Shown here: one piece after another, positions 1,257 to 55,822 of the stretch
Position numbering within the stretch: position 1 is the stretch's first letter
How the letters are laid out: every line of letters begins with the position of its first letter
Translations under genes and position numbers: made by a program
DNA from: Phycisphaerae bacterium
GTDB taxonomy: Bacteria > Planctomycetota > Phycisphaerae > UBA1845
Length of the DNA: 64,000 nt
Direction of reading: 5' to 3'
Assembly: GCA_963666835.2 (NCBI GenBank)
Contig: CAXXGO010000006.1
Coordinates: 1,184,001-1,248,000, forward strand
The notes under the pieces: model-generated
What the model saw: only the letters and a program-made list of their open reading frames with translations
Databases searched by the model: none
What the model was told of the DNA's origin: nothing

Positions 1257-1290
1257 CCGTTCTCCTCCAGGACTAAAAGGGGGTCGGACT

Positions 1291-1406
1291 AAAAGGGGGT
1301 CGGGAGTCTCTTGTCTCCTGTTGTCGTGTTAGTCTGCGGTGCATGTGCCCAAGTTCCTCTGTGCGAGGCGGACGTGCGGCGAGAAAAGACTCCCGACCCC
1401 TTTTTT
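1291..1406. mobile_element. Palindromic MITE/REP-like element, copy 2
   Basis: AAAAGGGGGTCGGGAGTCTCTT...GAGAAAAGACTCCCGACCCCTTTTTT terminal inverted repeats. A 16-bp tandem duplication GACTAAAAGGGGGTCG lies at 1271-1302. Confidence 0.75.
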
Positions 1407-20470: not shown

Positions 20471-20559
20471 ACCACTGTGGTTCCCTCGGGCGAGCTTCGT
20501 TGCCCGGGAGTGTCGGGTAATTGACACCGCGCGATGCGGATATCGATAGGACGGCCGAA

Positions 20560-21600
20560 ATGGCGGGTAAACCACAAGGCGACTCGGGTGACGGACCCCC
20601 TCCTCTGCGAGGTATAACCAAAGCGGCGATCTTACTTCTGGCGTTGGGGCGGGATACTTCCGCGACCGTAATGCGGCAGTTGAACCAGGACATCGTCGAA
20701 GAGATCACGCGGGAGATAGCCCACCTCGATCAGGTTGATGTTGTAGAGCAGGGCCGGGTAGTGGAGGAGTTCTACAATCTTGCCCTTGCGACCCAGTACG
20801 CGCAGTCGGGCGGAGTGCTCTACGCGCGAAACCTGTTGGAGAAGGTCCTGCCGCCGGACCAAGCCGCCCGGATCATTCGGGTAATCGAGACTCAGGTCCA
20901 CAAGCGGCCGTTTTCGTTCTTGGCCAAGACCGATTCCGAGAACCTGATGACGTTTATCCAGGACGAGCATCCGCAGACTATCGCATTGATTATGTCTCAC
21001 CTGACGAGTGGGAAGGCCGGCGAGATTCTGGCCGGTCTATCCGCCAGCAAACAGGTCGAGGTCGTCTCTCGCATAGCTCACATGGAGAACACCAACCCGG
21101 AGGTAATCAAGGAAGTCGAGCAGGGGTTGGAGATGCGGCTCTCCGGTGTGGTATCGCAGACGTTCCAGAAGGTCGGTGGGGTCGAGTCGGTGGCCGAGAT
21201 GTTGAACCTGGCGGACCGCAGCACCGAGAAGGCCATCATGGAGGCACTCGAAGCTCAGGATCCGGATTTGGTGGAAGAGATTCGGCGACTGATGTTCATC
21301 TTCGAGGACATCATGCTCGTAAACGACAAGGGTATCCAACTCGTCCTCAAGGAGATCGAGAACGAAGATCTGGCGTTGGCCCTCAAGACCGCCAGCGAGG
21401 AACTGCACGAGAAGATCTTCCGGAACATGTCTGAACGGGCGGCGGAGATGATCCGGGAGGACATGGAGTATATGGGTCCGGTTCGCGTCAGTGACGTGGA
21501 GGCGGCTCAGCAGAAGATCGTCGATGTGGTCCGCCGGCTCGAGGACGCGGGCGAGATCATCATCTCCGGACGCGGCGGCGAGAAGGAAATGATCGTATGA
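20560..21600 (+). CDS. fliG: Flagellar motor switch protein FliG
   Basis: KAAILLLALG, EHPQTIALI, GGVESVAEMLN, MFIFED, NMSERAAEMIRED, GPVRVSDVEAAQ. Confidence 0.96.
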   Translation: MAGKPQGDSGDGPPPLRGITKAAILLLALGRDTSATVMRQLNQDIVEEITREIAHLDQVDVVEQGRVVEEFYNLALATQYAQSGGVLYARNLLEKVLPPDQAARIIRVIETQVHKRPFSFLAKTDSENLMTFIQDEHPQTIALIMSHLTSGKAGEILAGLSASKQVEVVSRIAHMENTNPEVIKEVEQGLEMRLSGVVSQTFQKVGGVESVAEMLNLADRSTEKAIMEALEAQDPDLVEEIRRLMFIFEDIMLVNDKGIQLVLKEIENEDLALALKTASEELHEKIFRNMSERAAEMIREDMEYMGPVRVSDVEAAQQKIVDVVRRLEDAGEIIISGRGGEKEMIV

Positions 21601-30090: not shown

Positions 30091-30852
30091 ATGCCCGGAA
30101 AGAAGAAGCAGGAAGCGCCGCAAGGCGCGCCAGAGTGGATGGTGACGTACGGCGACGCCATGACGCTCTTGCTGTGCTTCTTCGTGATCATCGTTTCCAT
30201 GAGCGAGGTCAAACAGGATCAGCGTTTTCAGCAAGTAATGGAGTCGTTGCGGAAGACGTTCGGCGGGTATGTGGGCCAGGTCGGTATGACGCCGGTCGAG
30301 CAGATTCCGGCTAACTCGCTGTTGCAGCGATTGCTGGAGATAGACGTGCGGGTGTTGAAAGACAAAAAGGGGGACTCGGATACCGAGGGGATCCACGGCC
30401 GGGAGTTCCGCGTGACCAACGTGCGCGACGGGCTTGAAGTGGTTGTGGGGGGCCGGGTGACGTTTCCTCGCCACAGCGCGACGTTGATGCCGGAAGGACG
30501 GAGGCTAATCGCCGAGGTTGCGGAACGCTTGCGCGGATACAATACCAAGATCCTCGTTCGCGGACACGCCACGCGGGAGCCGCTTCCTGAGGACTCCATT
30601 TATGATGACGCCCGGGATTTATCGTATCGCCGGGCTAAGGCGGTGGTCAGCGAACTGGAGAAGCACGGGGTCCGGGGTGTTCGGTTGATCCCAGTTGCTT
30701 TGGGTGATACCGAGCCGCTGGTGCGGCAGGCTTACACGGAGGAGCGGCGCGCGCTCAATCGTCGCGTGGAGATTCTGGTTACGGAGGACCTTATCGAAGA
30801 TTTCGCCGGCTCTACGTTGGCGGATGAGATTAAGGAGTCCTCTAATGGGTGA
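30091..30852 (+). CDS. motB: Flagellar stator B subunit (MotB/PomB)
   Basis: WMVTYGDAMTLLLCFFVII. OmpA-like domain (VRGHA, LSYRRA, NRRVEI). Confidence 0.92.
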   Translation: MPGKKKQEAPQGAPEWMVTYGDAMTLLLCFFVIIVSMSEVKQDQRFQQVMESLRKTFGGYVGQVGMTPVEQIPANSLLQRLLEIDVRVLKDKKGDSDTEGIHGREFRVTNVRDGLEVVVGGRVTFPRHSATLMPEGRRLIAEVAERLRGYNTKILVRGHATREPLPEDSIYDDARDLSYRRAKAVVSELEKHGVRGVRLIPVALGDTEPLVRQAYTEERRALNRRVEILVTEDLIEDFAGSTLADEIKESSNG

Positions 30853-31369
30853 TGAACCAGCTACTGGGGCCAACGCTGCGCCGGCGGGCAAGTCTAAGTT
30901 GATGCCGATCATAATCGTCGCAGCTCTGATGATCGGTGAGGGCGTCGGGATCTACTTCGTGGCGAAGGCCCTGCACACGGGACCGGACATCGCTGCCGCG
31001 GGCGAAGGGGTCGAGGAGCCCGAGCCGGAGGGCGCCGTCGGGATGGAGCTGTCCGAGGTTGCCCTGGGGGAGGCTCGCCCCAGCAACAAGATGTCGGGTA
31101 AGTTCATCACGTTCCAGGTTAAGGTCTCTATTCTGGTGGATACCGAACGGCTCGAAGCGACCACAGCGCTTGTGGAAACCAAGCAGGCCCGACTCAAGGA
31201 CCGGATCAACTTCGTGTTCCGAAGCGCCGAACTGAACCACCTGAATGAGCCGGGCTTGGAGACGATCCGTCGACGATTAAAGTTCGAATTTGATCGGGTG
31301 TTCGGTGATGACACGATCGTGAAAGAGGTCTTGATCACCGAGATGTTGCAGTCGAGCTCCGGCGTTTGA
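30845..31369 (+). CDS. fliL: Flagellar basal body-associated protein FliL
   Basis: N-terminal TM, ARLKDRI, L.EPGLETIRRRL, VKEVLI. Follows motB. Confidence 0.82.
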   Translation: MGDEPATGANAAPAGKSKLMPIIIVAALMIGEGVGIYFVAKALHTGPDIAAAGEGVEEPEPEGAVGMELSEVALGEARPSNKMSGKFITFQVKVSILVDTERLEATTALVETKQARLKDRINFVFRSAELNHLNEPGLETIRRRLKFEFDRVFGDDTIVKEVLITEMLQSSSGV

Positions 31370-31439: not shown

Positions 31440-32381
31440 ATGGAGCCCGTGGACGAGAATGGTAACTCACAACCTGGGCAGGGCGATTTCGATCAGAGCG
31501 ATATAGACGCACTGTTCTCCGGGGGGACGCCCGGAGAAGACGCGAAGGGGGAAGAGACTCCTGCGCCGGATTCCGGCGAAATCAGTCAAGCTGACATCGA
31601 CGCTCTCGTGCAAGGAGGCGGCGCGGCTGAATCGCCGTCCCCGCCCGCTGCGGACGATGGCGAAATAAGCCAAGCCGATATTGATGCCCTCATGCAAGGT
31701 GGTGCTGCTGCTGATGAACCTCCTCCCGCCGCCGCGGACGACGGCGAGATAAGCCAGGCCGACATTGACGCTCTCATGCAAGCCGGTGCCGGCGATGCAC
31801 CGCCTCCTGCCGCTGCGGGCGATGGCGAGATAAGCCAGGCCGATATTGATGCCCTTATGCAGGGTGGGGCCGGTGCTGCGGCGGAGACCCCGCCTGCGCC
31901 GGAGCCGGATACCCGGGTAGACACGCTGGGTCGTCCCTTCGATGAAATGGCTGCGGCTATGGCGGCCGCCATCGAGGAAGAGAAAGCGGCGGCTGCTGCC
32001 GCAGCGGCCAGTGCTCCGCCACCGCCTCCTCCTCCGCCAACGCCACAGGCTCCTCCTATACCCATTGAGACAAGAGCATTCGAGCTGGCCGACCTGAGCG
32101 ATAGCGGCGGCCTCGAAACCAACGCCAAGCGGATCACGATGCTCAACGACGTTGACCTTCGAGTGAAGCTACAGTTGGGGCAGACGCGGATGCTGGTCGA
32201 GGAAGTGCTTAAGCTGGGTGAGGGAAGCGTAGTCGAACTCGATAAGCTCGCCGGTGACCCGGTGGATGTGATTATTAATGACCGGTTGATTGCCCGCGGT
32301 GAGGTGCTCGTGCTGAACGACAGTTTCTGTGTACGGATCAGCGAAGTACTGGCCAATGATCCCCATCGGGTGACGGCATGA
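31440..32381 (+). CDS. fliN: Flagellar motor switch protein FliN with an extended N-terminus of five SQxDIDAL repeats
   Basis: C-terminal SpoA domain LNDVDLRVKLQLGQT..LVEEVLKLGEGSVVELDKLAGDPVD..IN.RLIARGEVLV.ND.F.VRI. Confidence 0.92.
   Translation: MEPVDENGNSQPGQGDFDQSDIDALFSGGTPGEDAKGEETPAPDSGEISQADIDALVQGGGAAESPSPPAADDGEISQADIDALMQGGAAADEPPPAAADDGEISQADIDALMQAGAGDAPPPAAAGDGEISQADIDALMQGGAGAAAETPPAPEPDTRVDTLGRPFDEMAAAMAAAIEEEKAAAAAAAASAPPPPPPPPTPQAPPIPIETRAFELADLSDSGGLETNAKRITMLNDVDLRVKLQLGQTRMLVEEVLKLGEGSVVELDKLAGDPVDVIINDRLIARGEVLVLNDSFCVRISEVLANDPHRVTA
31482..31870 (+). repeat. Intragenic tandem repeat encoding (DG)EISQADIDAL(M)QxG plus Pro/Ala linker
   Basis: FDQSDIDALF, ISQADIDALV and three ISQADIDALM, with a period of about 84-87 bp. 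Confidence 0.9.
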
Positions 32382-33181
32382 TCGCTCAGGCCGGGGTTGG
32401 TGACCGGTGCCGCTGCAGTGCAAACGGCCCGGTGAGATTGCTGACGGTATTGCTGGGTATGACCGCAGCCCTGTCGTTCGCCCAGGCACCGGATGTAGTG
32501 CCTGCTGTGCCGAACGACGGTCAGGTGTCATCGAATCAGAGCGTGGCGTTACCGGATGATCCCGGGCCGGCGGTGGAGAGCAATCTACCCGACGAAGCCG
32601 TGGCCGCTTCGGCGAATGAAGGTCCCCCGAGCCCGACGTTCTCGCGTCGGCGAGCGGTGGCGCGTCGCCCGATACTGGAGACCGAGGCCGAGGCCGGCGG
32701 AGTCGGGCGTTATCAAGGGGCCTCACCCTGGTACCGCACGGGGTTGGGGGCTCTTGGGTTGGTCTTGGCTCTGGTGGCTCTGGTTTACGCTGGGGTTCGG
32801 CGATGGGTTCCTTCGGTGCGCTCCGGCGACAGCGGGTTGATGCGGGTTGTCTCCCGCACCAGTTTGACGCCCAAGCAGCATGTGGTTCTGTTGCAGGTCG
32901 GACGTCGTCTGGTTTTGGTGGGCGTAGGTTCCGATCAGGTGCGAAACCTTTGCGAAATAACTGATCAGAGCGAGGTGGCGGAATTGACGGCCGGTTTGGG
33001 GACTTGGAATTCGCGCGGCTCTTTCGACGACAAGCTGTTCAGCCAGGTGTCCGAGTATCGTGAGGATTGGGAGGAGGAGGGAGCAGCGGATGACCGCTCT
33101 CGCCCGCGGCGGCAACCGGAAAGAGCCGCACCGTTGAAAGAGCTGCTGCTACGACTGCGGGAGTTGAAGATAAAGGAGTAG
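32378..33181 (+). CDS. fliO: Flagellar biosynthetic protein FliO (extended)
   Basis: TM, then MRVVSRTSLTPKQHVVLLQVGRRLVLVGV...V..LCEITD. Located between fliN and fliP. Confidence 0.85.
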   Translation: MIAQAGVGDRCRCSANGPVRLLTVLLGMTAALSFAQAPDVVPAVPNDGQVSSNQSVALPDDPGPAVESNLPDEAVAASANEGPPSPTFSRRRAVARRPILETEAEAGGVGRYQGASPWYRTGLGALGLVLALVALVYAGVRRWVPSVRSGDSGLMRVVSRTSLTPKQHVVLLQVGRRLVLVGVGSDQVRNLCEITDQSEVAELTAGLGTWNSRGSFDDKLFSQVSEYREDWEEEGAADDRSRPRRQPERAAPLKELLLRLRELKIKE

Positions 33182-36291: not shown

Positions 36292-38370
36292 ATGGCGTTG
36301 AATAGCGTGGCCAAGCAGTGGATTCCGCGGAACTTCGCCAAGCTTCAGGGCGGATTGCTGCCGGTCTGCGCGCTGTCGCTGATTCTGGTCATTCTGATTC
36401 CGCTGCCGACCTCCCTGATGGACCTGCTCCTGCTGATCAACATCTCGCTATCCGGGGTGATCCTGTTGACCGTAATGTACATGAACGGTCCTTTGGAGTT
36501 TTCCTCGTTTCCGTCGCTGCTCCTGGGAATGACCTTGCTGCGGTTGGTGCTCAATACTGCTACTACCCGGTTGATCCTCACCAAGGGTGATGCGGGCACG
36601 GTGATTTTCACGTTCGGAGATTTCGTGGCCCGAGGATCGCTCGCCGTCGCGGTGATTATTTTCGCGATCATTGTGATCATCCAGTTCGTGGTTATTACGA
36701 AAGGGGCGACGCGAATCGCGGAAGTGGCCGCTCGCTTCACGTTGGACGGCATGCCCGGTAAGCAGATGGCCATCGACGCGGATCTCAACGCCGGCGCCAT
36801 TACAGATGAAGAAGCTAAGCAGCGGCGGTCCGACATTTCGCGGGAGGCGGATTTCTACGGGGCTATGGATGGTGCCAGCAAGTTCGTACGCGGTGATGCG
36901 ATCGCCGGGATCATCATAACGCTTATCAACATCCTCGGGGGTATCTTCGTAGGTTTGGTCGAACTGGACCTGCCGCTCGCCGAGACCCTGCGTCGGTTCA
37001 CGATTCTAACGATCGGCGATGGATTGGTCTCGCAGATCCCCGCTTTCATCGTGTCGATCTCCGCCGCGATGATTGTGACGCGGTCCGCCGCGAAGCGGAA
37101 TCTGGGTGAGGAGATCCTGGGCCAACTGGTTAGCCAGCCGATTGCGCTGATTCTGACCGGAGGGTTCCTTTTGGTTCTGGCGTTGACCCCGTTGCCGAAA
37201 CCGCCGCTGTTGCTGTTGACAGCCTCGGCCGGGGTTATGGGCCTGGTCCTCACCAACCGGAAGAAGGTTGCCCTTGCGCAGAGTGTAGCCGCCAAGGCTA
37301 AGCCGACGGGACCTGAGCGGGTTGAGAAGCACTTAGCCCCCGACCCTATGGAACTGGATGTCGGTTACGGACTCATCAAACTGGTTGACCGCAAGCAGGG
37401 CGGAGACCTTCTCGATCGTATCGCCAATCTCCGGCGGCAGATTGCCCAGGAGCTCGGGATCGTAGTCCCGCCGATTCGCATTCGCGATGATATCCAACTA
37501 CAGCCGAACCAGTTCCGGGTCAAGGTCAAGGGACTGGAGTTTGGCACCGGAGAGGTCATGCCGGGGCACGTATTAGCGATCGATGCGGGGAGCGTTACGG
37601 AACCGATCAGCGGGATGGAGACCACCGAGCCGACGTTCGGTTTGCCGGCGTTGTGGATCCCCGAGGATCAGCGGCATGAGGCCGAGCACCGCAACTACAC
37701 CGTCGTAGAGCCATCAAGCGTTGTTAATACCTACCTGACCGAGCTGATTAAACGCCATGCGGATGAGTTGCTTACCAGAAGCGAGGTTAACCGCCTGCTG
37801 GACCACCTCCGCGAGCGTTCGAGTAAGCTGGTCGAGGAGACGGTTCCCGAGGTAGTCAAGCCGGGTGAACTGCAGCGTGTTCTGCAGAGTCTGCTCCGTG
37901 AGCGGGTGCCGATTCGGGATCTGGAGGCCATTCTGGAGGTGGTCGGAGACTGGGCGTCTCGTACGAAGGACACGGAGATCCTCACCGAGTACGCCCGCAA
38001 CGCCCTGGCCCGCACTCTGTGTCACCAGCACAAGGCGGATGACGGGAGGATTCATTGTATCACGCTGGATCCTTCGATTGAGGAACTTATCAGCAAAAGC
38101 CTGCAACGCTCGGAGCATGGGTCCGTCCTGGCCATGCCCGGGGAGCTGCAGACCAAGATCGTCAAGGCGATTCGCACGCGGGTGGAGAAGGTCAGTCCCC
38201 AGATGCGCGGGCGACCACCGGCGGTGTTGTGTCCGCCGCAGATCCGATCGTGGGTCCGCAAGATGATCGAGGTCCAGCTCCCGGCGGTTGCGGTACTGTC
38301 CTACAATGAAGTTGTTCGTGGATTCGAGGTCGAATCGCATGGAATGGTGGTTCTAACGGATGAAGCTTAA
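36292..38370 (+). CDS. flhA: Flagellar export protein FlhA
   Basis: FSSFPSLLL, ITKGATRIAEVAARFTLDGMPGKQMAIDADL, FYGAMDGASKFVRGDAIAG, ERVPIRD. Confidence 0.97.
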   Translation: MALNSVAKQWIPRNFAKLQGGLLPVCALSLILVILIPLPTSLMDLLLLINISLSGVILLTVMYMNGPLEFSSFPSLLLGMTLLRLVLNTATTRLILTKGDAGTVIFTFGDFVARGSLAVAVIIFAIIVIIQFVVITKGATRIAEVAARFTLDGMPGKQMAIDADLNAGAITDEEAKQRRSDISREADFYGAMDGASKFVRGDAIAGIIITLINILGGIFVGLVELDLPLAETLRRFTILTIGDGLVSQIPAFIVSISAAMIVTRSAAKRNLGEEILGQLVSQPIALILTGGFLLVLALTPLPKPPLLLLTASAGVMGLVLTNRKKVALAQSVAAKAKPTGPERVEKHLAPDPMELDVGYGLIKLVDRKQGGDLLDRIANLRRQIAQELGIVVPPIRIRDDIQLQPNQFRVKVKGLEFGTGEVMPGHVLAIDAGSVTEPISGMETTEPTFGLPALWIPEDQRHEAEHRNYTVVEPSSVVNTYLTELIKRHADELLTRSEVNRLLDHLRERSSKLVEETVPEVVKPGELQRVLQSLLRERVPIRDLEAILEVVGDWASRTKDTEILTEYARNALARTLCHQHKADDGRIHCITLDPSIEELISKSLQRSEHGSVLAMPGELQTKIVKAIRTRVEKVSPQMRGRPPAVLCPPQIRSWVRKMIEVQLPAVAVLSYNEVVRGFEVESHGMVVLTDEA

Positions 38371-39616
38371 GACGTTTCGTGGAAGAACGATGGCCGAGAC
38401 GCTCGGCCAGGTGAAACGCCAGTTCGGAAGTGGCGCGGTCATACTGAACACCCGTACCCTTACGAAGGGAGGCCTCCTGGGGATCGGGGGTAAATCCTAC
38501 GTCGAGATAACGGCAGTGCGCGAAATGGCGGATTTGCCGATCCCATTGCGGCGCGGTACCCTAAAGGGCCGGTCGGGGGAAACCGGTCGAGCAGATGGAG
38601 CTGCCAAAACCGTGTCGCCTGCGCCTGCTGCCGTGTCTTCGTCACCGTCGGACGACGTTCTCGCCGAGGTGCGAGATCTGAAAGCCGCGGTCGCCAGCCT
38701 GATCGGGGAGACCCGCAGAGCCCAAGCTCCCGACATCCCCGAGGCACTGTACGGTACCTATCAGCGGTTGGTGGAGAACGAAGTCGCCGAGCAACTTGCC
38801 CGCCAATTAGTGGCCCGGGTATACGATGAACTCACTCCGGATCAGTTGCGCAGCGCCCGCGCCGTCCGCAATAAGCTGGCGGCGCTGTTGGAGTCGTTTC
38901 TGCCCGTAGCCGGGCCGATCCGCTGCCCTCGGAGCGATCGGCCTGCCATGATTGCGCTGATTGGGCCCACCGGCGTGGGAAAGACCACCACGATTGCGAA
39001 GCTCGCCGCGAGTTTCTGTCTGCGCGAGCATCGCAAAGTTGGTTTGATCACGGTGGATACCTATCGGATTGCGGCCGTCGAACAGCTTAAGACCTATGCG
39101 GAGATCATCGACGTGCCGCTGGAGGTGGCGGATACGCCCGCGCGGTTCGGAGAGGCAGTAACCCGCTTGGCGGACCGCGAGGTCATTCTGATGGACACGG
39201 CCGGGCGCAGCCAGCGCGATGAAGGCAAAATGGCGGAGCTACGGGAGTTCTTCTCAGTAGCCAAGCCGGACGAGGTGCATCTGGTGCTCTCCAGCGCGTG
39301 CGGGGAGGCCGTGCTGGCCGATACCGTTGAACGGTTTCGCGAGTTTGGGATCGACCGCGTCATACTGACGAAACTTGATGAGGCGATCGGGTTCGGGGTC
39401 ATCCTGACCTGCCTGGAGAAGGCCAACGCGGGGCTGTCCTATGTGACTACCGGGCAGGACGTGCCCGACGACATAGAAGTCGGCGAGACCAGCGCTCTCG
39501 TCGATCTGATTCTCCGAGATCGAGCTTCTTCAGACCAGGTCGTGTGGACGCCTGCGCGGGCCGGTGCCACGACTGCGTCGGGGCGGAGCCTACTGGCCGG
39601 CGGAGCTGCCGGATGA
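38360..39616 (+). CDS. flhF: Flagellar SRP-type GTPase FlhF
   Basis: MKLKTF...M.E.L..VK...G..AVIL.TR, GPTGVGKTTTIAKLAA, DTYRIAA, DTAGRS, TKLDE, GQDVPDD. Confidence 0.95.
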   Translation: MKLKTFRGRTMAETLGQVKRQFGSGAVILNTRTLTKGGLLGIGGKSYVEITAVREMADLPIPLRRGTLKGRSGETGRADGAAKTVSPAPAAVSSSPSDDVLAEVRDLKAAVASLIGETRRAQAPDIPEALYGTYQRLVENEVAEQLARQLVARVYDELTPDQLRSARAVRNKLAALLESFLPVAGPIRCPRSDRPAMIALIGPTGVGKTTTIAKLAASFCLREHRKVGLITVDTYRIAAVEQLKTYAEIIDVPLEVADTPARFGEAVTRLADREVILMDTAGRSQRDEGKMAELREFFSVAKPDEVHLVLSSACGEAVLADTVERFREFGIDRVILTKLDEAIGFGVILTCLEKANAGLSYVTTGQDVPDDIEVGETSALVDLILRDRASSDQVVWTPARAGATTASGRSLLAGGAAG

Positions 39617-39652: not shown

Positions 39653-40522
39653 ATGGCTCACACCGGGATCCATCGTCGGGATCAGGCCGCGAGACTCCGG
39701 GAGTTGACCCGCGGGCGGTCCCGGGGCACCGCGATGACCATGGCGGTTACCAGCGGTAAGGGCGGGGTCGGCAAGTCCAACGTGGCCGTGAACCTCTCAA
39801 TCTGCCTGGCGGCACGCGGTCACCGAGTTACGTTGGTCGATGTGGATATGGGCCTCGCCAATGCTGATTTGCTGATGAATTTGCAGACGCGCTACAATCT
39901 TTCGCATGTTGTGTCGGGTTTGCGTGACATTGAGGGGGTTTGCACGGCCGGTCCCGGCGGGGTGCGGTTCGTACCTGGGTCTTCGGGTTTGGACGACTTG
40001 GCCAACCTCTCCGATTTTGAGCGGCGTAACTTGATCGGGCAGCTCCAAGAGCTGGAAAACAGCACTGATATCATGGTTTTGGATTGCGGGGCGGGGATCT
40101 CACGGAACGTGATGGGTTTCGCCCTGGCGGCCGATCGGGTGGCGGTGGTAACTACCTCTGAGCCTACTGCGCTGACTGACGCGTACGTGACGATCAAGTC
40201 GCTGCACCGAGCGGAGTGCCGGGCCGGCGTCGGTTTGTTCGTCAACATGGCCAACAGTCGGGACGAGGCCGTAGCGGTCTATCGACGGCTTTCGGGAGTT
40301 GCATCCAGATTTCTTGATATTTCCATTGCGGACTTCGGATATATGTTGCAAGATACTGCGGTTGAGCTGGCGGTTCAGGAGCGATGCCCGTTTGTTGTTC
40401 GGTATCCGTCCTCGAATGCCAGCGCTTGTATCGCTGCGATGGCGGATAGGCTGGTCAAGAACGACTCGGCCCATACCCGCCGCGGCGGTTTCTTCAAACG
40501 CGTGGTCGGCCTGTTTGCGTAG
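39653..40522 (+). CDS. flhG: MinD-like flagellar number regulator FlhG/FleN
   Basis: DQAARLR, VTSGKGGVGKSN, DVDMGLAN, DCGAG, EPTALTDAY, C-terminal amphipathic GFFKRVVGLF. Confidence 0.93.
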   Translation: MAHTGIHRRDQAARLRELTRGRSRGTAMTMAVTSGKGGVGKSNVAVNLSICLAARGHRVTLVDVDMGLANADLLMNLQTRYNLSHVVSGLRDIEGVCTAGPGGVRFVPGSSGLDDLANLSDFERRNLIGQLQELENSTDIMVLDCGAGISRNVMGFALAADRVAVVTTSEPTALTDAYVTIKSLHRAECRAGVGLFVNMANSRDEAVAVYRRLSGVASRFLDISIADFGYMLQDTAVELAVQERCPFVVRYPSSNASACIAAMADRLVKNDSAHTRRGGFFKRVVGLFA

Positions 40523-43425: not shown

Positions 43426-46400
43426 ATGTCAAATCGAAGATTCAACCTGTGCACGGCCGGTCGCCCGAGGGCGGTGTCGGCGATCGTTACCGCCGTGCTG
43501 TTGGCCGTGCTGTCGGCGACGGCGGCAAGGGCCGGGACAGATGCGACGTGGGTAGGGCCCTATGGCGGAAACTGGTCTGTTGCGGAGAACTGGGATCCTG
43601 CGGTTGTTCCCAACGGCGCCGGGTACGACGTTTTGATCGACACGGACAGCGGTGTGGCGTCGTCGGTCCTGCTGAACGGGACTTATACCGTCGGCACATT
43701 GACTATCGATGCGGGAGACCAGCTAACCATAAGCAACAACCACAACCTGTACCCCACAGGAAACGTCTTCAACAACGGGTTGCTGGCAATCGAGGCGACC
43801 CTCAGCGCCACGTACTTACGCATTGCCGGGGTGGCCGTCACATTTGATGGTAGCGGCGCGTTGGTCATGAGCGACAGCTCTCGGAACAGGATCTCCGCGA
43901 ACGACTGGACTTACCGGCTGACCAACACTGGAAGCCACACGATCCGTGGGGCCGGTGATGTGGGCGGCAACAACATGGTGCTCACCAACAACAGCCTGAT
44001 TCAGGCTGACCAGCTCACGCCACTGGTAATCAACTTGGCCGGAAACGCCGAGCATCAGAACTACAACACAGGTACGATGCAGGCGATTAGCGGAGGCACG
44101 CTGTCGTTGTCGGGGTCGCCCATTGACAATACGGCGGGGGTAATCCAGGCCCTTGATGGGTCGGCGGTGACCTTGTCCGGGAACTCGCATATCTACAATG
44201 GCACGCTGGCGACTCAAGGGACGGGGCAAATCCGCGTGACCGGAGATTCATGGATCGAGAGTCTCTCCAACACGGGTGATCTGTCTGTTGAGAACAACGC
44301 CAATTGCTACGTTCGGGGAATGATTGACAATCCCGGGACGGTATCCGTGAACGCTACGACGAGCAATACGTATCTCCGACTAGACCAAGCGGAGGCCGGC
44401 TTCACCGGCACCGGCGAAATCGTGCTCGGAGACTCCGGCCGTAACATGATCCACGCGAACGACTGGACCTACCGGTTTACCAATACGGGTGGACACACGA
44501 TCCGCGGCGGCGGTAACATCGGCGGAAACAATATGTTGCTCACCAACGCGGCCACTATTCAAGCGGACTGTGCCGGTGTGACGATGTCTGTGGATACCGG
44601 CGGCAGTAGTTATGAGAGCTGCAACACTGGTATCATGAAGGCGACCGGCGGCGGCATCCTGTCGATCAGCGGTTCCACCCTCGACAACACTGGAGGAACG
44701 ATCGAAGCGCAGAACGAATCCTACGTGGATCTGACCCAGGGTACCCACGTGCGTAACGGGACATTGTCCACCGAGGGGACCGGCCTGATTCGTGTTTCTG
44801 CGAACAGCAATGCCTACCTGGACAGTGTTACAAACACAGGCCGCGTCTCCGTGCTTAATAACGCCGATCTCTATGTCCGTGGGGCAATTACAAACGACGG
44901 GACGATCGGCGTGGACTCCCCGGGTAGCAACGCTACCGACATTCGTCTTGATCAGTCTGCGGCGACGCTGACCGGTGACGGCGAGGTCGTGTTGGCGGAC
45001 CACGCGAATAATCGGATTAGTGCGGATGATTGGAGGTACCGGCTCACGAACGCCGGCAATCATACGATTCGCGGTGGCGGCAGCCTCGGACTAAACAACA
45101 TGCTGCTCACCAACGAGTCGCTCATTCAAGCGGATGGGTCGGACGTTACGATGACCGTGGACTTGCCCGGCAATGCGGAAAACGAGAACTTCAACACGGG
45201 TGTTATGCAGGCCGCCGCAGGCGCCGTTTTGAGCTTGTACGCTACGCCAATCAACAACGACTCCGGTGAGATTCGAGCTCTTGATGGATCCTTTGTCAGT
45301 CTGTCCGGCGGGACGCACATATACAACGGAGAACTCGACACAGAGGGTAGCGGCCTGATCCGCGCTTCGGGCGGAAATGCGGCCTGTATCGAGGGCGTGA
45401 CCAGCAACGGGCACATCTCCTTGCTCAATGGCTCCGACTTATATATCCGTGGCACCCTGACGAACAACGGAACGATTGGTGTGGATTCATCCGGTTCAAA
45501 CGCTACGAACTTGCTACTCGACCAAGCGGAGGCGACGCTCACCGGTGATGGTGAGGTCGTCCTGGCGAGTCGCGCCAACAATCGAATCTACGCAAACGAT
45601 TGGACGTACCGGCTTATCAATACCGGCAATCATGCGATTCGCGGCGGCGGCAGCTTCGGACTCAACAACATGCTCCTAACCAACGAATCGCTCATCGAAG
45701 CAGATCAAGCGGGTGTGACGATGTCGCTGGACGTGGCAAACGGCGGGGAGAGCTTGAACACGGGCGTCGTGCAGGCAACCGGAGGTGGAGTTCTGGCCCT
45801 GAGCGGCTCGCCAATCAACAACGATACGGGCGAGATCAAAGCTCTTGACGGGTCCTTTGTTGATCTGTCCGGGGGGACGCACATCTACAACGGTGAGCTT
45901 GATACGGAGGGCAGCGGTCTGATTCGTGTTCCGAACGGACAGACTGCCTACATAGAGAATCTGACCAGCAGCGGGCACATCTCCGTGCTCAATAACGCCA
46001 ACTTCTATCTTCGTGGCGTTGTCACAAACAATGGCACGATTGGTGTGGATTCATCCGGTTCAAACGCTACGAACTTGCTACTCGACCAAGCGGAGGCGAC
46101 GCTCACCGGTGATGGTGAGGTCGTCCTGGCGAGTCGCGCCAACAATCGAATCTACGCAAGCGATTGGACGTACCGGCTTATCAATACCGGCAATCATGCG
46201 ATTCGCGGCGGCGGCAGCTTCGGACTCAACAGCATGCTCCTCACCAACGAGTCGCTCATCGAAGCAGATCAGCCGGGCGTGACGATGGCGATAGATATGG
46301 CAAACGGCGGAGAGAGTTTCAACGGTGGAGTCATGCAGGCCACTGGGGGCGGGACGCTGTACTTGTATGCGTCGCCGATCGACAACGAGTCTGGTGAAAT

Positions 46401-49400
46401 CAAAGCTCTTGATGAATCGTATGTTGACCTGGGTGGTGGGACACACGTGTATAACGGCGAGCTACATACGGAGGGCAGCGGCCTGATTCGCGTTCCGGGC
46501 GGACACTCCGCCTACATCGAGAATCTGACCAGCGACGGGCACATTTCCGTGTGCAATAATGCCGACCTCTATGTTCGTGGCATTGTCACCAACAACGGGA
46601 CGATTGGGGTGGATTCGCCTGGTGTAAACACCACACACTTGCGACTCGACCAGGCCGAGGCAACCCTTGCCGGCGACGGCGAGGTCGTTCTTGCGGATCA
46701 CTCGTACAATCGAATCTACGCCAACGATTGGTCGTATGTACTTACTAACGGCGTCAATCACACGATACGCGGCGGTGGCAGTATTGGTGCGAACAACATG
46801 GGGCTTATCAACCAGGGTTCGATCGTGGCCGACGCCAGCGGAGGGATGACGCTGGACCTCTCCAACGCCGGCTTCGATAACCAGGGTACGCTGCACGTCA
46901 CCAACGAAAGCACGATGTACATCGCCCCGACCCCGTTTACCACGAGCGGGACCGTGACCGTCGACGAGACGTGCGTGCTGACCCGCAGCGGCGATTACCC
47001 GCAGACTGCCGGGCTGACCACCGTGCATGGTGAACTGAGTGTCTCCGCCGGTATCGACCTGCAGGGTGGTGTGCTCGGAGGGAATGGGCTCGTCAGTGCC
47101 TATGTCGGCAACACCGGCGGCGCCGTCGGGCCGGGGGCTTCGGCCGGAACCCTGACCATCGATGACGACTATGACCAAGCCAGCGAGGCCGAGCTGCGGA
47201 TCGAGCTGGGGGGCACGGACGACGGTGAGTTTGACGTCCTCGAAGTGACCGGTACGGCCGCCCTGGCCGGGACGCTGAGCCTGACCGTGATTGACGATTA
47301 CGTCCCCATGCCCGGCGACAGCTTCGTCATTCTAACGGCGGCGTTAGTGGATTCGGAGTTCGAAACCGTGACCGTGGCGGGGCTGCCGGACGGCCTGTGC
47401 GAAGATGTCGGTTACTCAGATACCGAGGTTACTGTCACGATCATCGGAACCGTTATTACTCAGCAACCGACGGATCAGACCGTTTGTCTGGACGATCCGG
47501 TCGAGTTCACTGTCGAGTACACGGGGACCGATCCGGACGGGTACCAATGGCGTAAGGACGGCGTAGATATCCCCGGCGAGGAGGACGCCACGCTCTCGAT
47601 AGAGTCGGTCACAACTGAAGACGCCGGCATGTACGATGTCGTGATCACTAACATCTGCGGGACAATGACCAGTGAACCGGCTACTCTGGTGGTCAACACG
47701 CCGCCGGTGATTGAGGTTGAGCCGGTCGGAGCGACTCTTTGTGAGGGTGGGCCTTTCGAGATCAGCGTCACGGCTTCCGGTACCACCCCCTTCGACTATC
47801 GCTGGCGTAAGGACGGAGTCGAAATCCCCGGCGAGGAGAGCGATACGTTCAGGATCGACGCCGTCACCACGGCCGATGCCGGGGCGTACGATGTCGTAGT
47901 GACCAACGTCTGCGGGACGGCGATTAGCGCCGATGCGGTTCTCGTGGTCAACACGGCACCGGTGATTATCGTCGATCCCGTCGGAGCCACTCTTTGCGAG
48001 GGCGAGCCGCTCGAAATCAGCGTCACGGCTTCCGGCACGACGCCCTACGACTATCGCTGGCGTAAGGACGGAGTCGAGATCCCCGGCGAGGAGAGCGATA
48101 CGTTCGGGATCGACGCCGTCACTACGACCGATGCGGGGGCGTACGACGTCGTTGTGACCAATGTCTGTGGGACGATAATCAGCGCCGATGCGGTTCTGGT
48201 GGTCAATACGGCACCAACGATCATTACCGATCCCGCCGGAGCTACCCTTTGCGAAGGGGCGCCGTTCGAGATCAGCGTTACGGCTTCCGGCACAACGCCC
48301 TACGACTATCGCTGGCGGAAAGACGGCGTGGAGATCCCCGGCGAGAGAAGCGGTACGTTCAGGATCGACGCCGTCACCTCGGCGGATGCCGGGGTGTACG
48401 ATGTCGTGGTGACCAACGTCTGCGGGACGGTGACCAGCGCCGACGCGATTCTGGTGGTCAACACGGCACCCACGATTATTTCCGAGCCGGTCGGGGCCAC
48501 TCTTTGTGAGGGGGCGCCTTTCGAAGTCAGCGTTACGGCTTCCGGCACGACTCCTCTTGACTATCGCTGGCGTAGGGACGGCGTGGAAATCCCCGGCGAG
48601 GAGAGCGATACGTTGAGGATCGACGCCGTCACTACGGCTGATGCCGGGGTCTACGATGTCGTAGTGACCAACGTCTGCGGGACGGTGACGAGCGCCGACG
48701 CTGTTTTGGTGGTCAATACCGCGCCAGCGATTATCACCGAGCCGGTTGGGGCTATCCTGTGTGAGGGTGATCCTTTCGTGCTCAGCGTGACGGTTTCGGG
48801 GACAACGCCCTACGACTATCGCTGGCGTAAGGACGGCGTGGGAATCCCCGGTGAGGAGAGCGATACCTTCAGGATCGACGCCGTCACCACAGCCGATGCC
48901 GGGGCGTATGACGTCGTAGTAACCAACGTCTGCGGGACGGTGACCAGTGTCGATGCGGTTCTGGTGGTTGACGTGGCGCCGACGATCGTGTTGCACCCGG
49001 TCGGTGTATCGGTCTGCGAGGGCACCCCGGTTACGTTTACGGTCGAGGCCGTTGGAACGCTGCCGTTCGATTACATCTGGCGTAAGGATGGTGTTGTACT
49101 GCCCTGGGCTCAGACGGATACTCTGGAGATTGAGTCCGCCGACGCCTCGGATGCGGGCGAGTACGATGTCATCGTGGAAAACGCCTGCGGTAGCGCCCCA
49201 AGCCACGTGGCCACCCTGGAAGTCGAACTATCCGGGCCCGCGGACTTGGATACGGACTGCGATGTTGACCTGGACGATTTCGCCGAGTTCAGTGCCTGTA
49301 TGATTGGCCCTGACTTGCCGGTGCCCAGCGGGTGCGAGGAAGCAGACATCACCGGTGACGGGCAAGTCGATCTGTTAGACTTCGCGGAGTTTGCGGCCCT

Positions 49401-49419
49401 GTACACCGGGGCGCAGTAA
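43426..49419 (+). CDS. Giant secreted adhesin-like protein: six ~188-aa beta-rich repeats, seven Ig-like domains, C-terminal dockerin-like domain
   Basis: Signal peptide and W.G..GGNWS...NW. Six repeats marked by I.ANDW.Y.L.N. Seven YxWR[KR]DG/AGxYDVVxxNxCG units. C-terminus DLDTDCDVDLDD..CMIGP..DITGDGQVDLLD. Confidence 0.9.
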   Translation: MSNRRFNLCTAGRPRAVSAIVTAVLLAVLSATAARAGTDATWVGPYGGNWSVAENWDPAVVPNGAGYDVLIDTDSGVASSVLLNGTYTVGTLTIDAGDQLTISNNHNLYPTGNVFNNGLLAIEATLSATYLRIAGVAVTFDGSGALVMSDSSRNRISANDWTYRLTNTGSHTIRGAGDVGGNNMVLTNNSLIQADQLTPLVINLAGNAEHQNYNTGTMQAISGGTLSLSGSPIDNTAGVIQALDGSAVTLSGNSHIYNGTLATQGTGQIRVTGDSWIESLSNTGDLSVENNANCYVRGMIDNPGTVSVNATTSNTYLRLDQAEAGFTGTGEIVLGDSGRNMIHANDWTYRFTNTGGHTIRGGGNIGGNNMLLTNAATIQADCAGVTMSVDTGGSSYESCNTGIMKATGGGILSISGSTLDNTGGTIEAQNESYVDLTQGTHVRNGTLSTEGTGLIRVSANSNAYLDSVTNTGRVSVLNNADLYVRGAITNDGTIGVDSPGSNATDIRLDQSAATLTGDGEVVLADHANNRISADDWRYRLTNAGNHTIRGGGSLGLNNMLLTNESLIQADGSDVTMTVDLPGNAENENFNTGVMQAAAGAVLSLYATPINNDSGEIRALDGSFVSLSGGTHIYNGELDTEGSGLIRASGGNAACIEGVTSNGHISLLNGSDLYIRGTLTNNGTIGVDSSGSNATNLLLDQAEATLTGDGEVVLASRANNRIYANDWTYRLINTGNHAIRGGGSFGLNNMLLTNESLIEADQAGVTMSLDVANGGESLNTGVVQATGGGVLALSGSPINNDTGEIKALDGSFVDLSGGTHIYNGELDTEGSGLIRVPNGQTAYIENLTSSGHISVLNNANFYLRGVVTNNGTIGVDSSGSNATNLLLDQAEATLTGDGEVVLASRANNRIYASDWTYRLINTGNHAIRGGGSFGLNSMLLTNESLIEADQPGVTMAIDMANGGESFNGGVMQATGGGTLYLYASPIDNESGEIKALDESYVDLGGGTHVYNGELHTEGSGLIRVPGGHSAYIENLTSDGHISVCNNADLYVRGIVTNNGTIGVDSPGVNTTHLRLDQAEATLAGDGEVVLADHSYNRIYANDWSYVLTNGVNHTIRGGGSIGANNMGLINQGSIVADASGGMTLDLSNAGFDNQGTLHVTNESTMYIAPTPFTTSGTVTVDETCVLTRSGDYPQTAGLTTVHGELSVSAGIDLQGGVLGGNGLVSAYVGNTGGAVGPGASAGTLTIDDDYDQASEAELRIELGGTDDGEFDVLEVTGTAALAGTLSLTVIDDYVPMPGDSFVILTAALVDSEFETVTVAGLPDGLCEDVGYSDTEVTVTIIGTVITQQPTDQTVCLDDPVEFTVEYTGTDPDGYQWRKDGVDIPGEEDATLSIESVTTEDAGMYDVVITNICGTMTSEPATLVVNTPPVIEVEPVGATLCEGGPFEISVTASGTTPFDYRWRKDGVEIPGEESDTFRIDAVTTADAGAYDVVVTNVCGTAISADAVLVVNTAPVIIVDPVGATLCEGEPLEISVTASGTTPYDYRWRKDGVEIPGEESDTFGIDAVTTTDAGAYDVVVTNVCGTIISADAVLVVNTAPTIITDPAGATLCEGAPFEISVTASGTTPYDYRWRKDGVEIPGERSGTFRIDAVTSADAGVYDVVVTNVCGTVTSADAILVVNTAPTIISEPVGATLCEGAPFEVSVTASGTTPLDYRWRRDGVEIPGEESDTLRIDAVTTADAGVYDVVVTNVCGTVTSADAVLVVNTAPAIITEPVGAILCEGDPFVLSVTVSGTTPYDYRWRKDGVGIPGEESDTFRIDAVTTADAGAYDVVVTNVCGTVTSVDAVLVVDVAPTIVLHPVGVSVCEGTPVTFTVEAVGTLPFDYIWRKDGVVLPWAQTDTLEIESADASDAGEYDVIVENACGSAPSHVATLEVELSGPADLDTDCDVDLDDFAEFSACMIGPDLPVPSGCEEADITGDGQVDLLDFAEFAALYTGAQ
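47440..49230 (+). repeat. Seven tandem ~255-bp Ig-domain-coding repeats
   Basis: Recurrent GACTATCGCTGGCGTAAGGACGG... at a 255-bp period. Confidence 0.9.
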
Positions 49420-52829: not shown

Positions 52830-53639
52830 ATGAAACGAGCGAAGTACGAAGTTGCGGGAGGCGTACTGTGTGCGATCGTGTTGATTGCCGGGACCACGAT
52901 TGCCGGGATGAGATTGGGACACCGTGGTCCGGGGGATGGCGGGGAACGTCCGCCGTGTGAGGATCCCATCTCGGATGATATGCAGGCAGGGCTGCTGGAG
53001 CGTCATGGCTCCGACGGCATTGATGCGGACGGCGACGGCGTCTTGACGTGTGAAGAGGTCGAGGCGTTCTTCGCGGCAAACCCACCCCCGGGTCCGCGGC
53101 ATGGCGGGCATCGTCCGCCGTGCGAGGATCCGATCCCGGACGATATGCAGGCAGGGCTGCTGGAGCGTCATGGCTCCGACGGCATTGATGCGGACGGCAA
53201 CGGCGTCTTGACGTGCGAAGAGGTTGAGGCGTTCTTCGCGGCAAACCCACCCCCGGGTCCGCGGCATGGCGGGCAGCGTCCGCCGTGCGAGGATCCGATC
53301 CCGGACGATATGCAGGCAGGGTTGCTGGAGCGTCATGGCTCCGACGGCATTGATGCGGACGGCAACGGCGTCTTGACGTGCGAAGAGGTTGAGGCGTTCT
53401 TCGCGGAGAATCCACCCCCGGGTCCGCGGCATGGCGGCGAACGCCCGCAGTGCGAGGATCCGATCCCGGACGATATGCAGGCAGGGTTGCTGGAGCGTCA
53501 TGGCTCCGACGGCATTGATGGGGACGGCGACGGCGTCTTGAAGTGCGAAGAGGTCGAGGCGTTCTTCGCGGAGAATCCACCCCCGGGTCCGCGGCATGGC
53601 GGGCAGCATCCGCCGTGTGAGGATCCGATTTCCGGATGA
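52830..53639 (+). CDS. Secreted or membrane-anchored tandem-repeat protein with four 55-aa EF-hand-like units
   Basis: RBS AAGGAG, N-terminal hydrophobic segment, repeat unit CEDPIPDDMQAGLLERHGSDGIDADG[DN]GVLTCEEVEAFFAxNPPPGPRHGGxRPP. Confidence 0.85.
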   Translation: MKRAKYEVAGGVLCAIVLIAGTTIAGMRLGHRGPGDGGERPPCEDPISDDMQAGLLERHGSDGIDADGDGVLTCEEVEAFFAANPPPGPRHGGHRPPCEDPIPDDMQAGLLERHGSDGIDADGNGVLTCEEVEAFFAANPPPGPRHGGQRPPCEDPIPDDMQAGLLERHGSDGIDADGNGVLTCEEVEAFFAENPPPGPRHGGERPQCEDPIPDDMQAGLLERHGSDGIDGDGDGVLKCEEVEAFFAENPPPGPRHGGQHPPCEDPISG

Positions 53640-53775: not shown

Positions 53776-53932
53776 ACAAGAGGCGATCGGAGCCATCGAT
53801 CCGGCCGATCGCCTCCAGTCCAGGTGTTCGGATGGCGACAAGGCATCCGGGCACGAGGGACAAGATCGCAAGCCCTGCCCGGCGCGGAGGCCATTCCGGT
53901 AGCGTTTGCTTAGCGTTGCGGAAGGCAGACCA

Positions 53933-55804
53933 ATGTCTTGTATTCGCATTATTGTGCTAAGTGTGGTTGTGACGGTTCCGCTTATTGGTTGCCGTTCGCC
54001 GGGGGAGCACCGGCGGGCGGCTGATCGGGTGGCGTACGGGAACATCGCCGAGGAGCGAATGAGAGCCCTGGGACGTGACGAGCCTTTTACAATCGAGACG
54101 CCGGCGGACACGCTCCGGCGGAGGTTGCTGCTGGATCAACACTTGCCGCGCGCCGCGAGTGCCTCGCTGGGCGCGAGCGATCTGGAGCCGATCGAGCAGT
54201 GGCCCGACGATGACTACCTCAAAAAATCCGACGCCGGGGAAGGGCTCGCGGGGGCCTATCAGACCGACCAACCCCTGAACCTGACTTTGGTCGATGCCCT
54301 GCAGATCGCGGCCCATGAGAGTCGCGAGTATCAGAGCCGCAAGGAAACGGTCTTCGAAACGGCTCTGCACCTGGACCTCGAACGGGATTCGTTCCGACAT
54401 ACGTGGTCGGGCGTACTCGAAGGGATGTTCCAGACCGACCTCGAAGAAGAGATCGTAATCGACAACGAAGGTAACACCGATACGCAAAACGTCTCGGGGG
54501 CCGAGTACGGCGGATCGCTCGGCCTGTCCAAGCGTTTCAAGAACGGGCTGACCTTCACCGGCCTGATCGGCATCGATCTCGTTGCTCTGCTTACCCAGAA
54601 CCGGATGTTCTCGCGGTCGGTGTGGGCCGACGCCAGTATCTCGGTGCCGCTGATGCGCGGCTCCGGGGAGTTCGTCGTAACCGAACCGCTCACCCAGGCC
54701 CAGCGCAACGTCGTATACGCCATCTACGAGTTCGAGCGTTACAAGCGGGAGTTTGCGGTCCGAATCGCGGAGAGCTACTTGGGCGTTTTGCAGCAAAATG
54801 ACCAGGTCCGCAATGAAGAAGAGAACTATCGCGGATTGGTGACTTCGACCCGTCGCGCTCGCCGGCTGGCCGAGGCCGGGCGGCTCCCGGAGATTCAAGT
54901 CGATCAGTCCTTCCAGGATGAACTTCGGGCGCGCAACCGGTGGGTGGCTGCTATCGAAAGTTACGACCGGAGACTCGATAGCTTCAAGACGACCCTCGGG
55001 CTGCCGCCCGATGCCGACGTTTCGTTGGATTATACGGAGCTTGAGAGGGTCACGCTTCGGGCTGAGCAGATCATCCAGGAAGAGGAGCCGCGCGAAGAGG
55101 AAGACTCGGCCGCGGCCGATGATCCGATCGTGCTCGTCCCCCCCGGGCAGGGTATCGCGGGGCCGTATGAACTGGATGAGACGGACGCTATTCTCCTGGC
55201 CCTCGAGAAGCGGCTGGATCTTCGGGTCGCCCTGGGGCGGGTCCACGACGCCCAGCGCGGCGTGGCCGTATCCGCCGATCAACTGCGTGCGGATGTCACT
55301 CTTCTGGGAACCGGCTCCGCGGGCCAGCACCGCTCGATTTCATCGGCCACGATGGACGACGGGCGCCTGGCACCCGATGGCGGAATCTACTCGGCTTATC
55401 TGACCATAGACCTTCCGTTCGAGCGGACCTCGGAACGGAACGACTATCGCGTGAGTCTTATCCGCCTGGAGCAGGCGGTGCGGAACTTGCAGGAATTGGA
55501 AGACGAGATCAAGCTTGCCGCCCGTAACCGGCTCAGCGAATTGCTTGAAGCCCGCGAGGCGATTCAGATTCAGGCAATGGCGGTCACGGTTGCCGAGCGG
55601 CGCGTGGACAGTACGAACTTGTTCTTAGAAGCCGGCCGGGCTGAGATCCGGGACGTCCTCGAGGCGCAGGAATCTCTGGTGTCGGCACAGAATGCCTTGA
55701 CGGCGGCACTAGTGAGTTACCGGGTCGGAGAGCTCAGCCTTCAGCGAGATATGGGAGTGCTGGCGGTCAACGAAGAGGGCCTGTGGCAGGAATATACTCC
55801 TTAG
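53933..55804 (+). CDS. TolC-family outer-membrane efflux lipoprotein
   Basis: Lipobox LIGC, LTLVDALQIA, two OEP repeats (EAGRLPEIQVDQ; EAGRAEIRDVLEAQESLVSAQ), DMGVL. Confidence 0.88.
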   Translation: MSCIRIIVLSVVVTVPLIGCRSPGEHRRAADRVAYGNIAEERMRALGRDEPFTIETPADTLRRRLLLDQHLPRAASASLGASDLEPIEQWPDDDYLKKSDAGEGLAGAYQTDQPLNLTLVDALQIAAHESREYQSRKETVFETALHLDLERDSFRHTWSGVLEGMFQTDLEEEIVIDNEGNTDTQNVSGAEYGGSLGLSKRFKNGLTFTGLIGIDLVALLTQNRMFSRSVWADASISVPLMRGSGEFVVTEPLTQAQRNVVYAIYEFERYKREFAVRIAESYLGVLQQNDQVRNEEENYRGLVTSTRRARRLAEAGRLPEIQVDQSFQDELRARNRWVAAIESYDRRLDSFKTTLGLPPDADVSLDYTELERVTLRAEQIIQEEEPREEEDSAAADDPIVLVPPGQGIAGPYELDETDAILLALEKRLDLRVALGRVHDAQRGVAVSADQLRADVTLLGTGSAGQHRSISSATMDDGRLAPDGGIYSAYLTIDLPFERTSERNDYRVSLIRLEQAVRNLQELEDEIKLAARNRLSELLEAREAIQIQAMAVTVAERRVDSTNLFLEAGRAEIRDVLEAQESLVSAQNALTAALVSYRVGELSLQRDMGVLAVNEEGLWQEYTP

Positions 55805-55822
55805 AGAAACGGACGAATCGAG

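Follow-up and report, generated by a model that had tools for sequence, protein, structure and literature searches.

A FliN with five FliM-N-type peptides in a Phycisphaerae flagellar cluster, and comparative evidence on its likely CheY ligand

In a flagellar gene cluster of a Phycisphaerae bacterium (assembly GCA_963666835.2, here G000; contig CAXXGO010000006.1), fliN follows fliL directly, with no fliM, and encodes a protein whose N-terminal tail repeats five times a peptide of the type found at the N terminus of FliM. This arrangement raises two questions, namely whether the motor lacks FliM and what the peptides on FliN bind. We addressed them for the 64,000-nt stretch that holds the cluster (positions 1,184,001 to 1,248,000 of the contig, forward strand; hereafter the window, to which coordinates refer unless a contig or locus is named), for the rest of the assembly, and for related genomes.

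Five peptides on an acidic FliN tail

The gene at 31440..32381 (+) encodes a protein of 313 aa (P0001) whose N-terminal tail is long, acidic, and for the most part unstructured, followed at the C-terminal end by a SpoA (FliMN_C) domain (PF01052; residues 234-304, 32139..32351 (+), 74.4 bits), the single SpoA domain found by the Pfam scan. It scores above the FliN cut-off (TIGR02480, 96.2 bits against 84.05), and its named homologues are FliN proteins of Phycisphaerae and Planctomycetota. Within the protein, the Pfam scan matched neither the CheC domain (PF04509) nor the middle domain of FliM (PF02154), and the AlphaFold2 model (pLDDT 64.8, pTM 0.27) contains no folded middle domain, featuring instead five isolated short helices and a longer one at residues 169-191. 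The preliminary description, which had claimed a FliN with one SpoA domain and no CheC-like middle domain, was correct on this point. PF28396 is a precomputed annotation on many FliN homologues, and our FliN gave no match to it in the Pfam scan, which used a Pfam copy ending in 2025. All matches of an ESM Atlas search with the tail fell below 0.9, and we treat them as leads only.

The gene lies 70 bp after the end of fliL (30842..31369 (+), PF03748), and its stop codon is overlapped by fliO (32378..33181 (+), PF04347), within a large flagellar cluster that has fliG upstream and flhF and a MinD-like gene downstream. Elsewhere in the window we noted two tandem paralogous proteins of ~350 aa (210-2378 (-)) with a hydrophobic tail end bearing basic residues, presumably resembling a C-terminal sorting signal; a secreted-looking protein of 1997 aa (43426-49419 (+)) with beta-helix-like and Ig-like repeats by eye; a 269-aa protein (52830-53639 (+)) with four EF-hand-like repeats, also by eye; and an efflux cluster whose outer-membrane-factor and adaptor genes (53906-57667) have a near-identical second copy at G000:C3:650317-654117.

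The five peptides start at residues 17, 48, 76, 104, and 131 (period 31/28/28/27 aa). The first is FDQSDIDALF (residues 17-26, 31488..31517 (+), predicted helix 19-26) and the second ISQADIDALV (residues 48-57, 31581..31610 (+), predicted helix 50-58); the other three are identical copies of ISQADIDALM, at residues 76-85 (31665..31694 (+)), 104-113 (31749..31778 (+)), and 131-140 (31830..31859 (+)), with helices predicted for the fourth and fifth. Residues 1-160 carry a net charge of -34, and the tail is rich in Ala, Asp, Gly, and Pro. The locus is thus confirmed as a FliN, with a SpoA domain and no CheC domain, that carries five FliM-N-type ("EIDAL") peptides on acidic linkers. Some 80-125 residues separate the last peptide from the SpoA domain. 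This interval holds a second conserved tail element recognized in the alignment (GRPFD..AAAM..AI.EE; residues 159-191, 31914..32012 (+)), whose predicted helix at 169-191 ends in a poly-Ala run (residues 183-190), and a poly-Pro spacer (residues 193-200, 32016..32039 (+)), both runs being read from the sequence.

The array is real, and its motifs are under selection. When a motif PSSM trained on relatives of this FliN was run over the genome in six frames (7.57 million windows), the five FliN motifs scored 29-33 bits, and the one other match of at least 17 bits fell in an unrelated aminotransferase-like ORF. Because the motif is found strongly only in FliN, the array is not a product of chance, and the five tandem FliM-type peptides of the preliminary description stand. 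Across repeats 2-5, we counted 31 synonymous and 3 non-synonymous changes in the ten motif codons, compared with 17 and 16 in the 8 linker codons upstream of the motifs (sums over six non-independent repeat pairs). An assembly artefact, which the preliminary description had named as what could undo its claim, is ruled out by contigs that span the array. Contigs X1 and X2, from one sample that is possibly the source, each cross it in one piece, and X3, from a strain of another study, crosses it free of gaps, differing over the region by 17 letters, of which 5 lie within fliN and none at a motif position. A further contig, X5, is fragmented across the stretch.

In a PDB sequence search with repeats 3-5, the best match was the N terminus of Salmonella FliM (8umd_C residues 3-39, to which the third peptide aligns), a weak match at E 0.095. 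The peptides share with FliM-N of E. coli and Salmonella the sequence pattern, the short predicted helix, the flexible linker, and the location on a C-ring protein. However, there are five copies rather than one, they sit on FliN rather than FliM and carry D at the E position, and in relatives they are kept alongside a normal FliM. An EIDAL-type peptide on a FliN-type subunit is also known from FliY of Bacillus subtilis and Thermotoga maritima, which combines it with a CheC-like and a SpoA domain (PMC12826062), whereas our protein has several peptides and no CheC-like phosphatase domain. We rejected an identity as FliY: the N-terminal EIDAL-type peptides are present, but PF04509 and a folded middle domain are absent, and NF005995 scores 114 against a cut-off of 218, with a match limited to the SpoA part. 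The protein resembles canonical FliN (TIGR02480) in its SpoA domain, its disordered N-terminal region, and its place before fliOPQR, and differs from it by an N-terminal region of ~230 residues with the peptide array and the second conserved helix.

Full or degenerate EIDAL motifs have been described as sporadic in FliN and FliY (PMC6946799). In the main text of that study, which does not mention Planctomycetes, motif presence is reported for 12 model species, with no tandem arrays and no link to CheY content. Among the matches listed in a full-text literature search, from which subscription journals were mostly absent, we found no paper on tandem EIDAL arrays or on switch proteins of Planctomycetota.

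FliM in the source assembly and in its relatives

The source assembly comprises 6.02 Mb in 7 contigs and is 92.33% complete. No FliM was found in it by PF02154, by an HMM built from the FliM of 20 relatives (five of these sequences were reduced to their C-terminal part by the start-finding pattern), or by tblastn, so that the lack of fliM noted for the cluster extends to the entire assembly. However, a full canonical FliM is present in 39/40 relatives, at a locus unlinked to fliN, and none of the 145 short fliN loci of the lineage holds a piece of fliM. The adjacency of fliL and fliN is therefore the norm in this lineage and should not be taken there as the mark of a FliM-less motor.

The gene aroA lies directly upstream of fliM in 12 of the 20 fliM loci fetched from relatives and scores above its cut-off in 38/41 genomes. 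A search of the G000 assembly returned no aroA, the sole gene of the EPSP-synthase family being MurA, while aroC and aroF are retained; in the less complete G001 (62%), aroA and fliM are both absent too. An 85-residue match at C3:648.5 kb was rejected as aroA, as it traces to the N-terminal portion of a long open frame in one relative and not to the aroA part of that frame. The window's fliG (20521..21600 (+)) has an intact EHPQ(T) motif, the loop that binds the middle domain of FliM (PMC6700473, PMC7355467).

Synteny gave no position for a gap, and fliM neighborhoods differ between genera. The G000 contigs are unbroken at the three anchor genes where close relatives have the neighbors of fliM or aroA (a pilT-like gene at C1:8008, aroF at C1:26433, and a methyltransferase gene at C6:627857), and among ORFs lying up to 2.5 kb from the contig ends no known neighbor of fliM or aroA was recognized. 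Upstream of aroF, at G000:C1:23660-26089, where some relatives have aroA-fliM, we observed a reverse-transcriptase ORF (group II intron-like) and an apparently frameshifted cytidylate-kinase-like gene.

The absence of fliM from G000 probably reflects a segment missing from an incomplete assembly. The simplest reading is that the assembly lacks an aroA-fliM segment; a real deletion is possible, since G000 is continuous at the three anchors and synteny gave the gap no position. That the organism truly lost fliM, with the FliN array standing in for its CheY-binding role, would fit the lack of any FliM or remnant, the contigs running through the anchors with no neighbor near their ends, and a copy number among the highest. 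Yet this reading is scarcely credible, given that nearly all genomes with multicopy arrays are among the relatives with FliM, that aroA has gone as well while aroC and aroF stay (and likewise both genes in G001), that FliG keeps its FliM-binding motif, that the 7-contig assembly reaches 92% completeness, and that an array cannot supply the middle domain of FliM. A FliM-less ring of the injectisome type (SctQ) was also rejected, as our FliN scores 41.8 with TIGR02551 against a cut-off of 100.8 and relatives have FliM. The FliM-less or FliM-rearranged C-ring of the preliminary description is therefore unsupported, and an ordinary FliM is probably still part of the C-ring.

Most relatives have three SpoA genes, namely, FliM, FliN, and an orphan. 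In G000 the orphan lies after fabF, outside the flagellar cluster (G000:C3:325570-325971; L003:9571-9972), and several of its orthologues start with one degenerate EIDAL-like motif. Its product may be a C-ring subunit of the FliN2 type.

Copy number and co-occurrence with chemotaxis genes

Among our FliN and its 120 best homologues, a set biased toward the query, one protein has no motif, 16 have one, 57 two, 33 three, nine four, three five, and two six. For a more even view, we sampled genomes at least 90% complete across the order. FliN orthologues were found in 148/151, and 143 of them were complete, leaving out G060, G091, and G145 as likely truncated and G147 and G111 as cut by the locus edge. 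No motif occurs in 59 of these, one in 32, two in 22, three in 21, four in seven, five in one, and six in one. A count of the motif in orthologues, which the preliminary description had left to be made, thus yields zero to six copies, with the array common in the lineage. Five or more copies are rare (2/143), and copy number varies within genera.

The chemotaxis genes of G000 comprise two clusters, CheV, 10 receptor domains, and, apart from both clusters, a cheX-cheY pair (G000:C3:684890-685770; L269:4891-5771). The CheY of this pair (G000:C3:685396-685770) has as its best structural relatives CheY of Helicobacter pylori and Vibrio; it occurs in 81/151 genomes of the order, at 58-85% identity, and has been kept in several that lack detectable CheW.

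FliN motifs are present in 68/93 genomes with at least two CheW domains versus 9/40 with none (79/93 versus 10/40 with a lenient motif pattern), with binary tests leaving out the 10 genomes that have a single CheW domain. We then considered the cheX-paired CheY, in a post hoc test chosen after the CheW result and with a CheY search that scored at most 29 candidates per genome. At least one motif occurs in 69/77 genomes with the orthologue versus 15/66 without it, and at least two in 50/77 versus 2/66. The same direction is seen in the query's own family (30/30 versus 3/11) and in family f2 (13/14 versus 1/14). Family f7 showed no contrast (16/18 versus 3/4), and family f6 runs opposite (0/4 versus 8/35; lenient pattern, 0/4 versus 17/35), its motifs being confined to CheW-positive genomes (17/28 versus 0/9).

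These associations were also assessed on a phylogeny. PGLS on a tree of 134 tips, built from the FliN core plus FliP (9 further genomes lacked enough FliP), related copy number to the CheY orthologue with p 3e-8, a result that held when genome size and contig number were taken into account, and a CheW term stayed significant beside CheY (p 0.0002-0.008). Genome size alone did not predict copy number (p 0.12-0.22), and a variant with the strict motif, binary CheW, and lambda fixed at 1 was null (p 0.64). Independent pairs drawn over all branches (22-25 pairs) gave ~14-15 up versus 1-1.6 down, with a median p of 0.0005-0.002; treekit pairs confined to supported branches numbered 9-11, an underpowered set with a median p of 0.06-0.25.

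In the chemotaxis-positive genomes, copy number rises with the count of CheW domains (rho 0.61, n=93), as it does within the query's own family (rho 0.51, n=28), which lends some support to the earlier proposal that repeat number could act as a tuning knob. Alternatively, one or two copies might be functional and the excess a neutral repeat expansion, so that five would have no special meaning. The linker DNA shared by repeats 3-5, consistent with recent duplication, the variation within genera, and the rarity of five or more copies would suit such an expansion. However, all five motifs are intact and diverge mainly at synonymous sites, and copy number tracks the CheW count with an effect beside that of CheY, which makes neutrality of the excess distinctly unlikely.

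No CheW match at E 1e-18 was found in 42 of the 151 genomes of the order, which nevertheless keep their flagellar switch genes (within G004-G161). FliN motifs are visibly shortened or decayed in the CheW-less G004, G008, G017, and others, and five of the nine CheW-less genomes that keep motifs have the cheX-paired CheY. The second tail element is likewise lost along with the chemotaxis genes (64/93 CheW-positive versus 3/40 CheW-negative genomes) and is a candidate regulator of the CheY site on SpoA. FliM is present in 29/30 CheW-less genomes, and its own peptide is intact in 20 of the 23 that could be parsed (6 of the 29 loci were left unparsed). This conservation implies that the FliM peptide has a ligand or role outside chemotaxis.

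The MinD-like ATPase FlhG, a ligand that the preliminary description had overlooked along with the commonness of the array in the lineage, bears on the same comparison. CheY-P and FlhG are both known ligands of the EIDAL motif (bioRxiv 2022.04.21.489128, PMC12826062): the motif is both necessary and sufficient for the binding of FlhG in Shewanella putrefaciens (bioRxiv 2022.04.21.489128), and FlhG binds FliY in B. subtilis (PMC12826062). The cluster encodes flhF (38360..39616 (+); TIGR03499, 218 bits against a cut-off of 174), followed by a MinD-like ATPase (39653..40522 (+)) that we read as flhG from this position, its MinD-type matches being below cut-off. The FliN peptides might therefore dock FlhG so as to govern the assembly of the C-ring and the number of flagella, a role played by the motif on FliM in Shewanella and by FliY in Bacillus. 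Yet FlhG is found in 29/40 CheW-less genomes (23/26 in families f1 plus f2 and 1/9 in f6 with the query used), whereas 31 of the 40 lack FliN motifs; the FliM peptide, which persists, is the better candidate for a FlhG site. Since FlhG and the FliM peptide mostly persist in CheW-less genomes and the FliN motifs decay, CheY rather than FlhG is indicated for the FliN copies, and docking of FlhG on FliN is highly unlikely.

What the FliN peptides would do at the C-ring

A co-fold of two CheY with FliN repeats 3-4 scored 0.44, versus 0.00 for the best of three controls, with contact agreement of at least 63% and partner pLDDT of at least 60, and no interface was given. The mark used is reached by 116/157 solved pairs and 2/215 mismatched pairs; the support is weak because at 0.60 or below it is reached by only 18 of the 157 solved pairs and by both mismatches, and the score may reflect memory of solved CheY-FliM-N structures. 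The capture of CheY by the array, as claimed in the preliminary description, thus gains indirect support from the weak 8umd_C match, the co-occurrence with CheY and CheW, and a co-fold that points weakly the same way.

In E. coli, FliM-N is inessential for switching, tethers CheY, and potentiates it for low-affinity sites; without FliM-N, about tenfold more CheY is needed (PMC7957414). The folded domain of FliN provides one low-affinity CheY-P site, and FliM and FliN form a 1:3 complex in a ring of 32-35-fold symmetry (PMC6700473). By contrast, FliY of T. maritima, which has an N-terminal domain as well, shows no raised affinity for activated CheY (PMC7355467). Modeling the action of the FliN tails on that of FliM-N in E. 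coli, we consider it likely, with some reserve, that their peptides are multivalent extra tethers for CheY-P at the base of the C-ring. On the surface of CheY that FliM-N uses, each peptide would adopt a short helix, the probable ligand being the CheY of the cheX-cheY pair (G000:C3:684.9-685.8 kb). Capture would keep CheY-P close to the low-affinity switching sites on the SpoA domain of FliN and on the middle domain of FliM and potentiate it for them. With the stoichiometry of E. coli (three FliN per FliM, 32-35-fold), the FliN tails would add up to 15 tethers per protomer beside the SpoA site, raising the number of sites per protomer from 1 to as many as 16, or ~500 per motor; 16 is a maximum, as some of the FliN positions could be occupied by the orphan SpoA protein. 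The motor would be expected to switch at lower CheY-P. Tandem duplication would change copy number, and the motifs would decay once chemotaxis genes are lost.

Co-occurrence alone cannot separate tethering from sequestration. The peptides could instead bind CheY-P as a sink or buffer, or hold it for dephosphorylation by CheX, in effect a split FliY with the peptide on FliN and the phosphatase in trans, and so lower the sensitivity of the motor. Such a role predicts the identical co-occurrence with CheY; the gene of the CheY that the motifs track is paired with a CheX-like gene, arrays occur on bona fide FliY and CheC proteins too (P0148, P0187, P0132, P0151), and the last motif, at its distance from the SpoA domain, is possibly beyond reach of the switching sites. 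However, FliN itself has no phosphatase domain, a tethered FliM-N raises sensitivity in E. coli (PMC7957414), and the SpoA domain of FliN is itself a CheY-P site (PMC6700473). We therefore hold sequestration to be unlikely, though it deserves more weight than the neutral and FlhG readings, and continue to favor tethering.

Arrays of this kind extend beyond FliN. The tail was used as a query against 1.84 billion representatives, which gave 81 proteins; the majority have 3-19 copies, on FliN, FliY, CheC, TPR, Big_9, and unannotated single-pass membrane proteins; 6 of the 80 scanned have no motif and are low-complexity matches. Among P0122-P0201, we noted 3-19 motifs in tandem on TPR proteins (P0122, P0155, P0171) and Big_9 proteins (P0127, P0144), on CheC (P0132, P0151) and FliY (P0148, P0187), and on single-pass membrane proteins (P0123, P0124, P0128, P0130) whose C termini look FliL-like by eye. 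Two or three of the same motifs, with no SpoA domain, also occur on membrane proteins at L098:1-1134 (Clostridia) and L099:1371-2936 (Bdellovibrionales). The tandem EIDAL array is a general module.

The array of this FliN is a real, lineage-wide variation on a known design, the new part being a comparative test that names a likely CheY ligand. We also put forward, as a tentative proposal, that tandem EIDAL arrays are a mobile module for CheY-P capture and that labor is divided in this lineage: FliM would keep its single copy regardless of chemotaxis, for a role in assembly or with FlhG, and the CheY input would be multiplied on FliN, where zero to six copies would set sensitivity along with the number of chemosensory systems. 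If true, such a module, with up to 19 copies and on FliY, CheC, FliL-like, and TPR membrane proteins as well, would mean that the flagellar switch can generally be adjusted, in evolution, through tether valency.

How CheY-P gives an ultrasensitive switch, and whether FliM-N is mainly a tether or an activator, are long-running questions that have been studied almost only with one peptide per FliM. The natural series of zero to six peptides on FliN, which tracks CheY, offers ready constructs with which to relate the number and position of tethers to sensitivity and cooperativity, and it hints that different subunits can take on the CheY role and the FlhG role of the motif.
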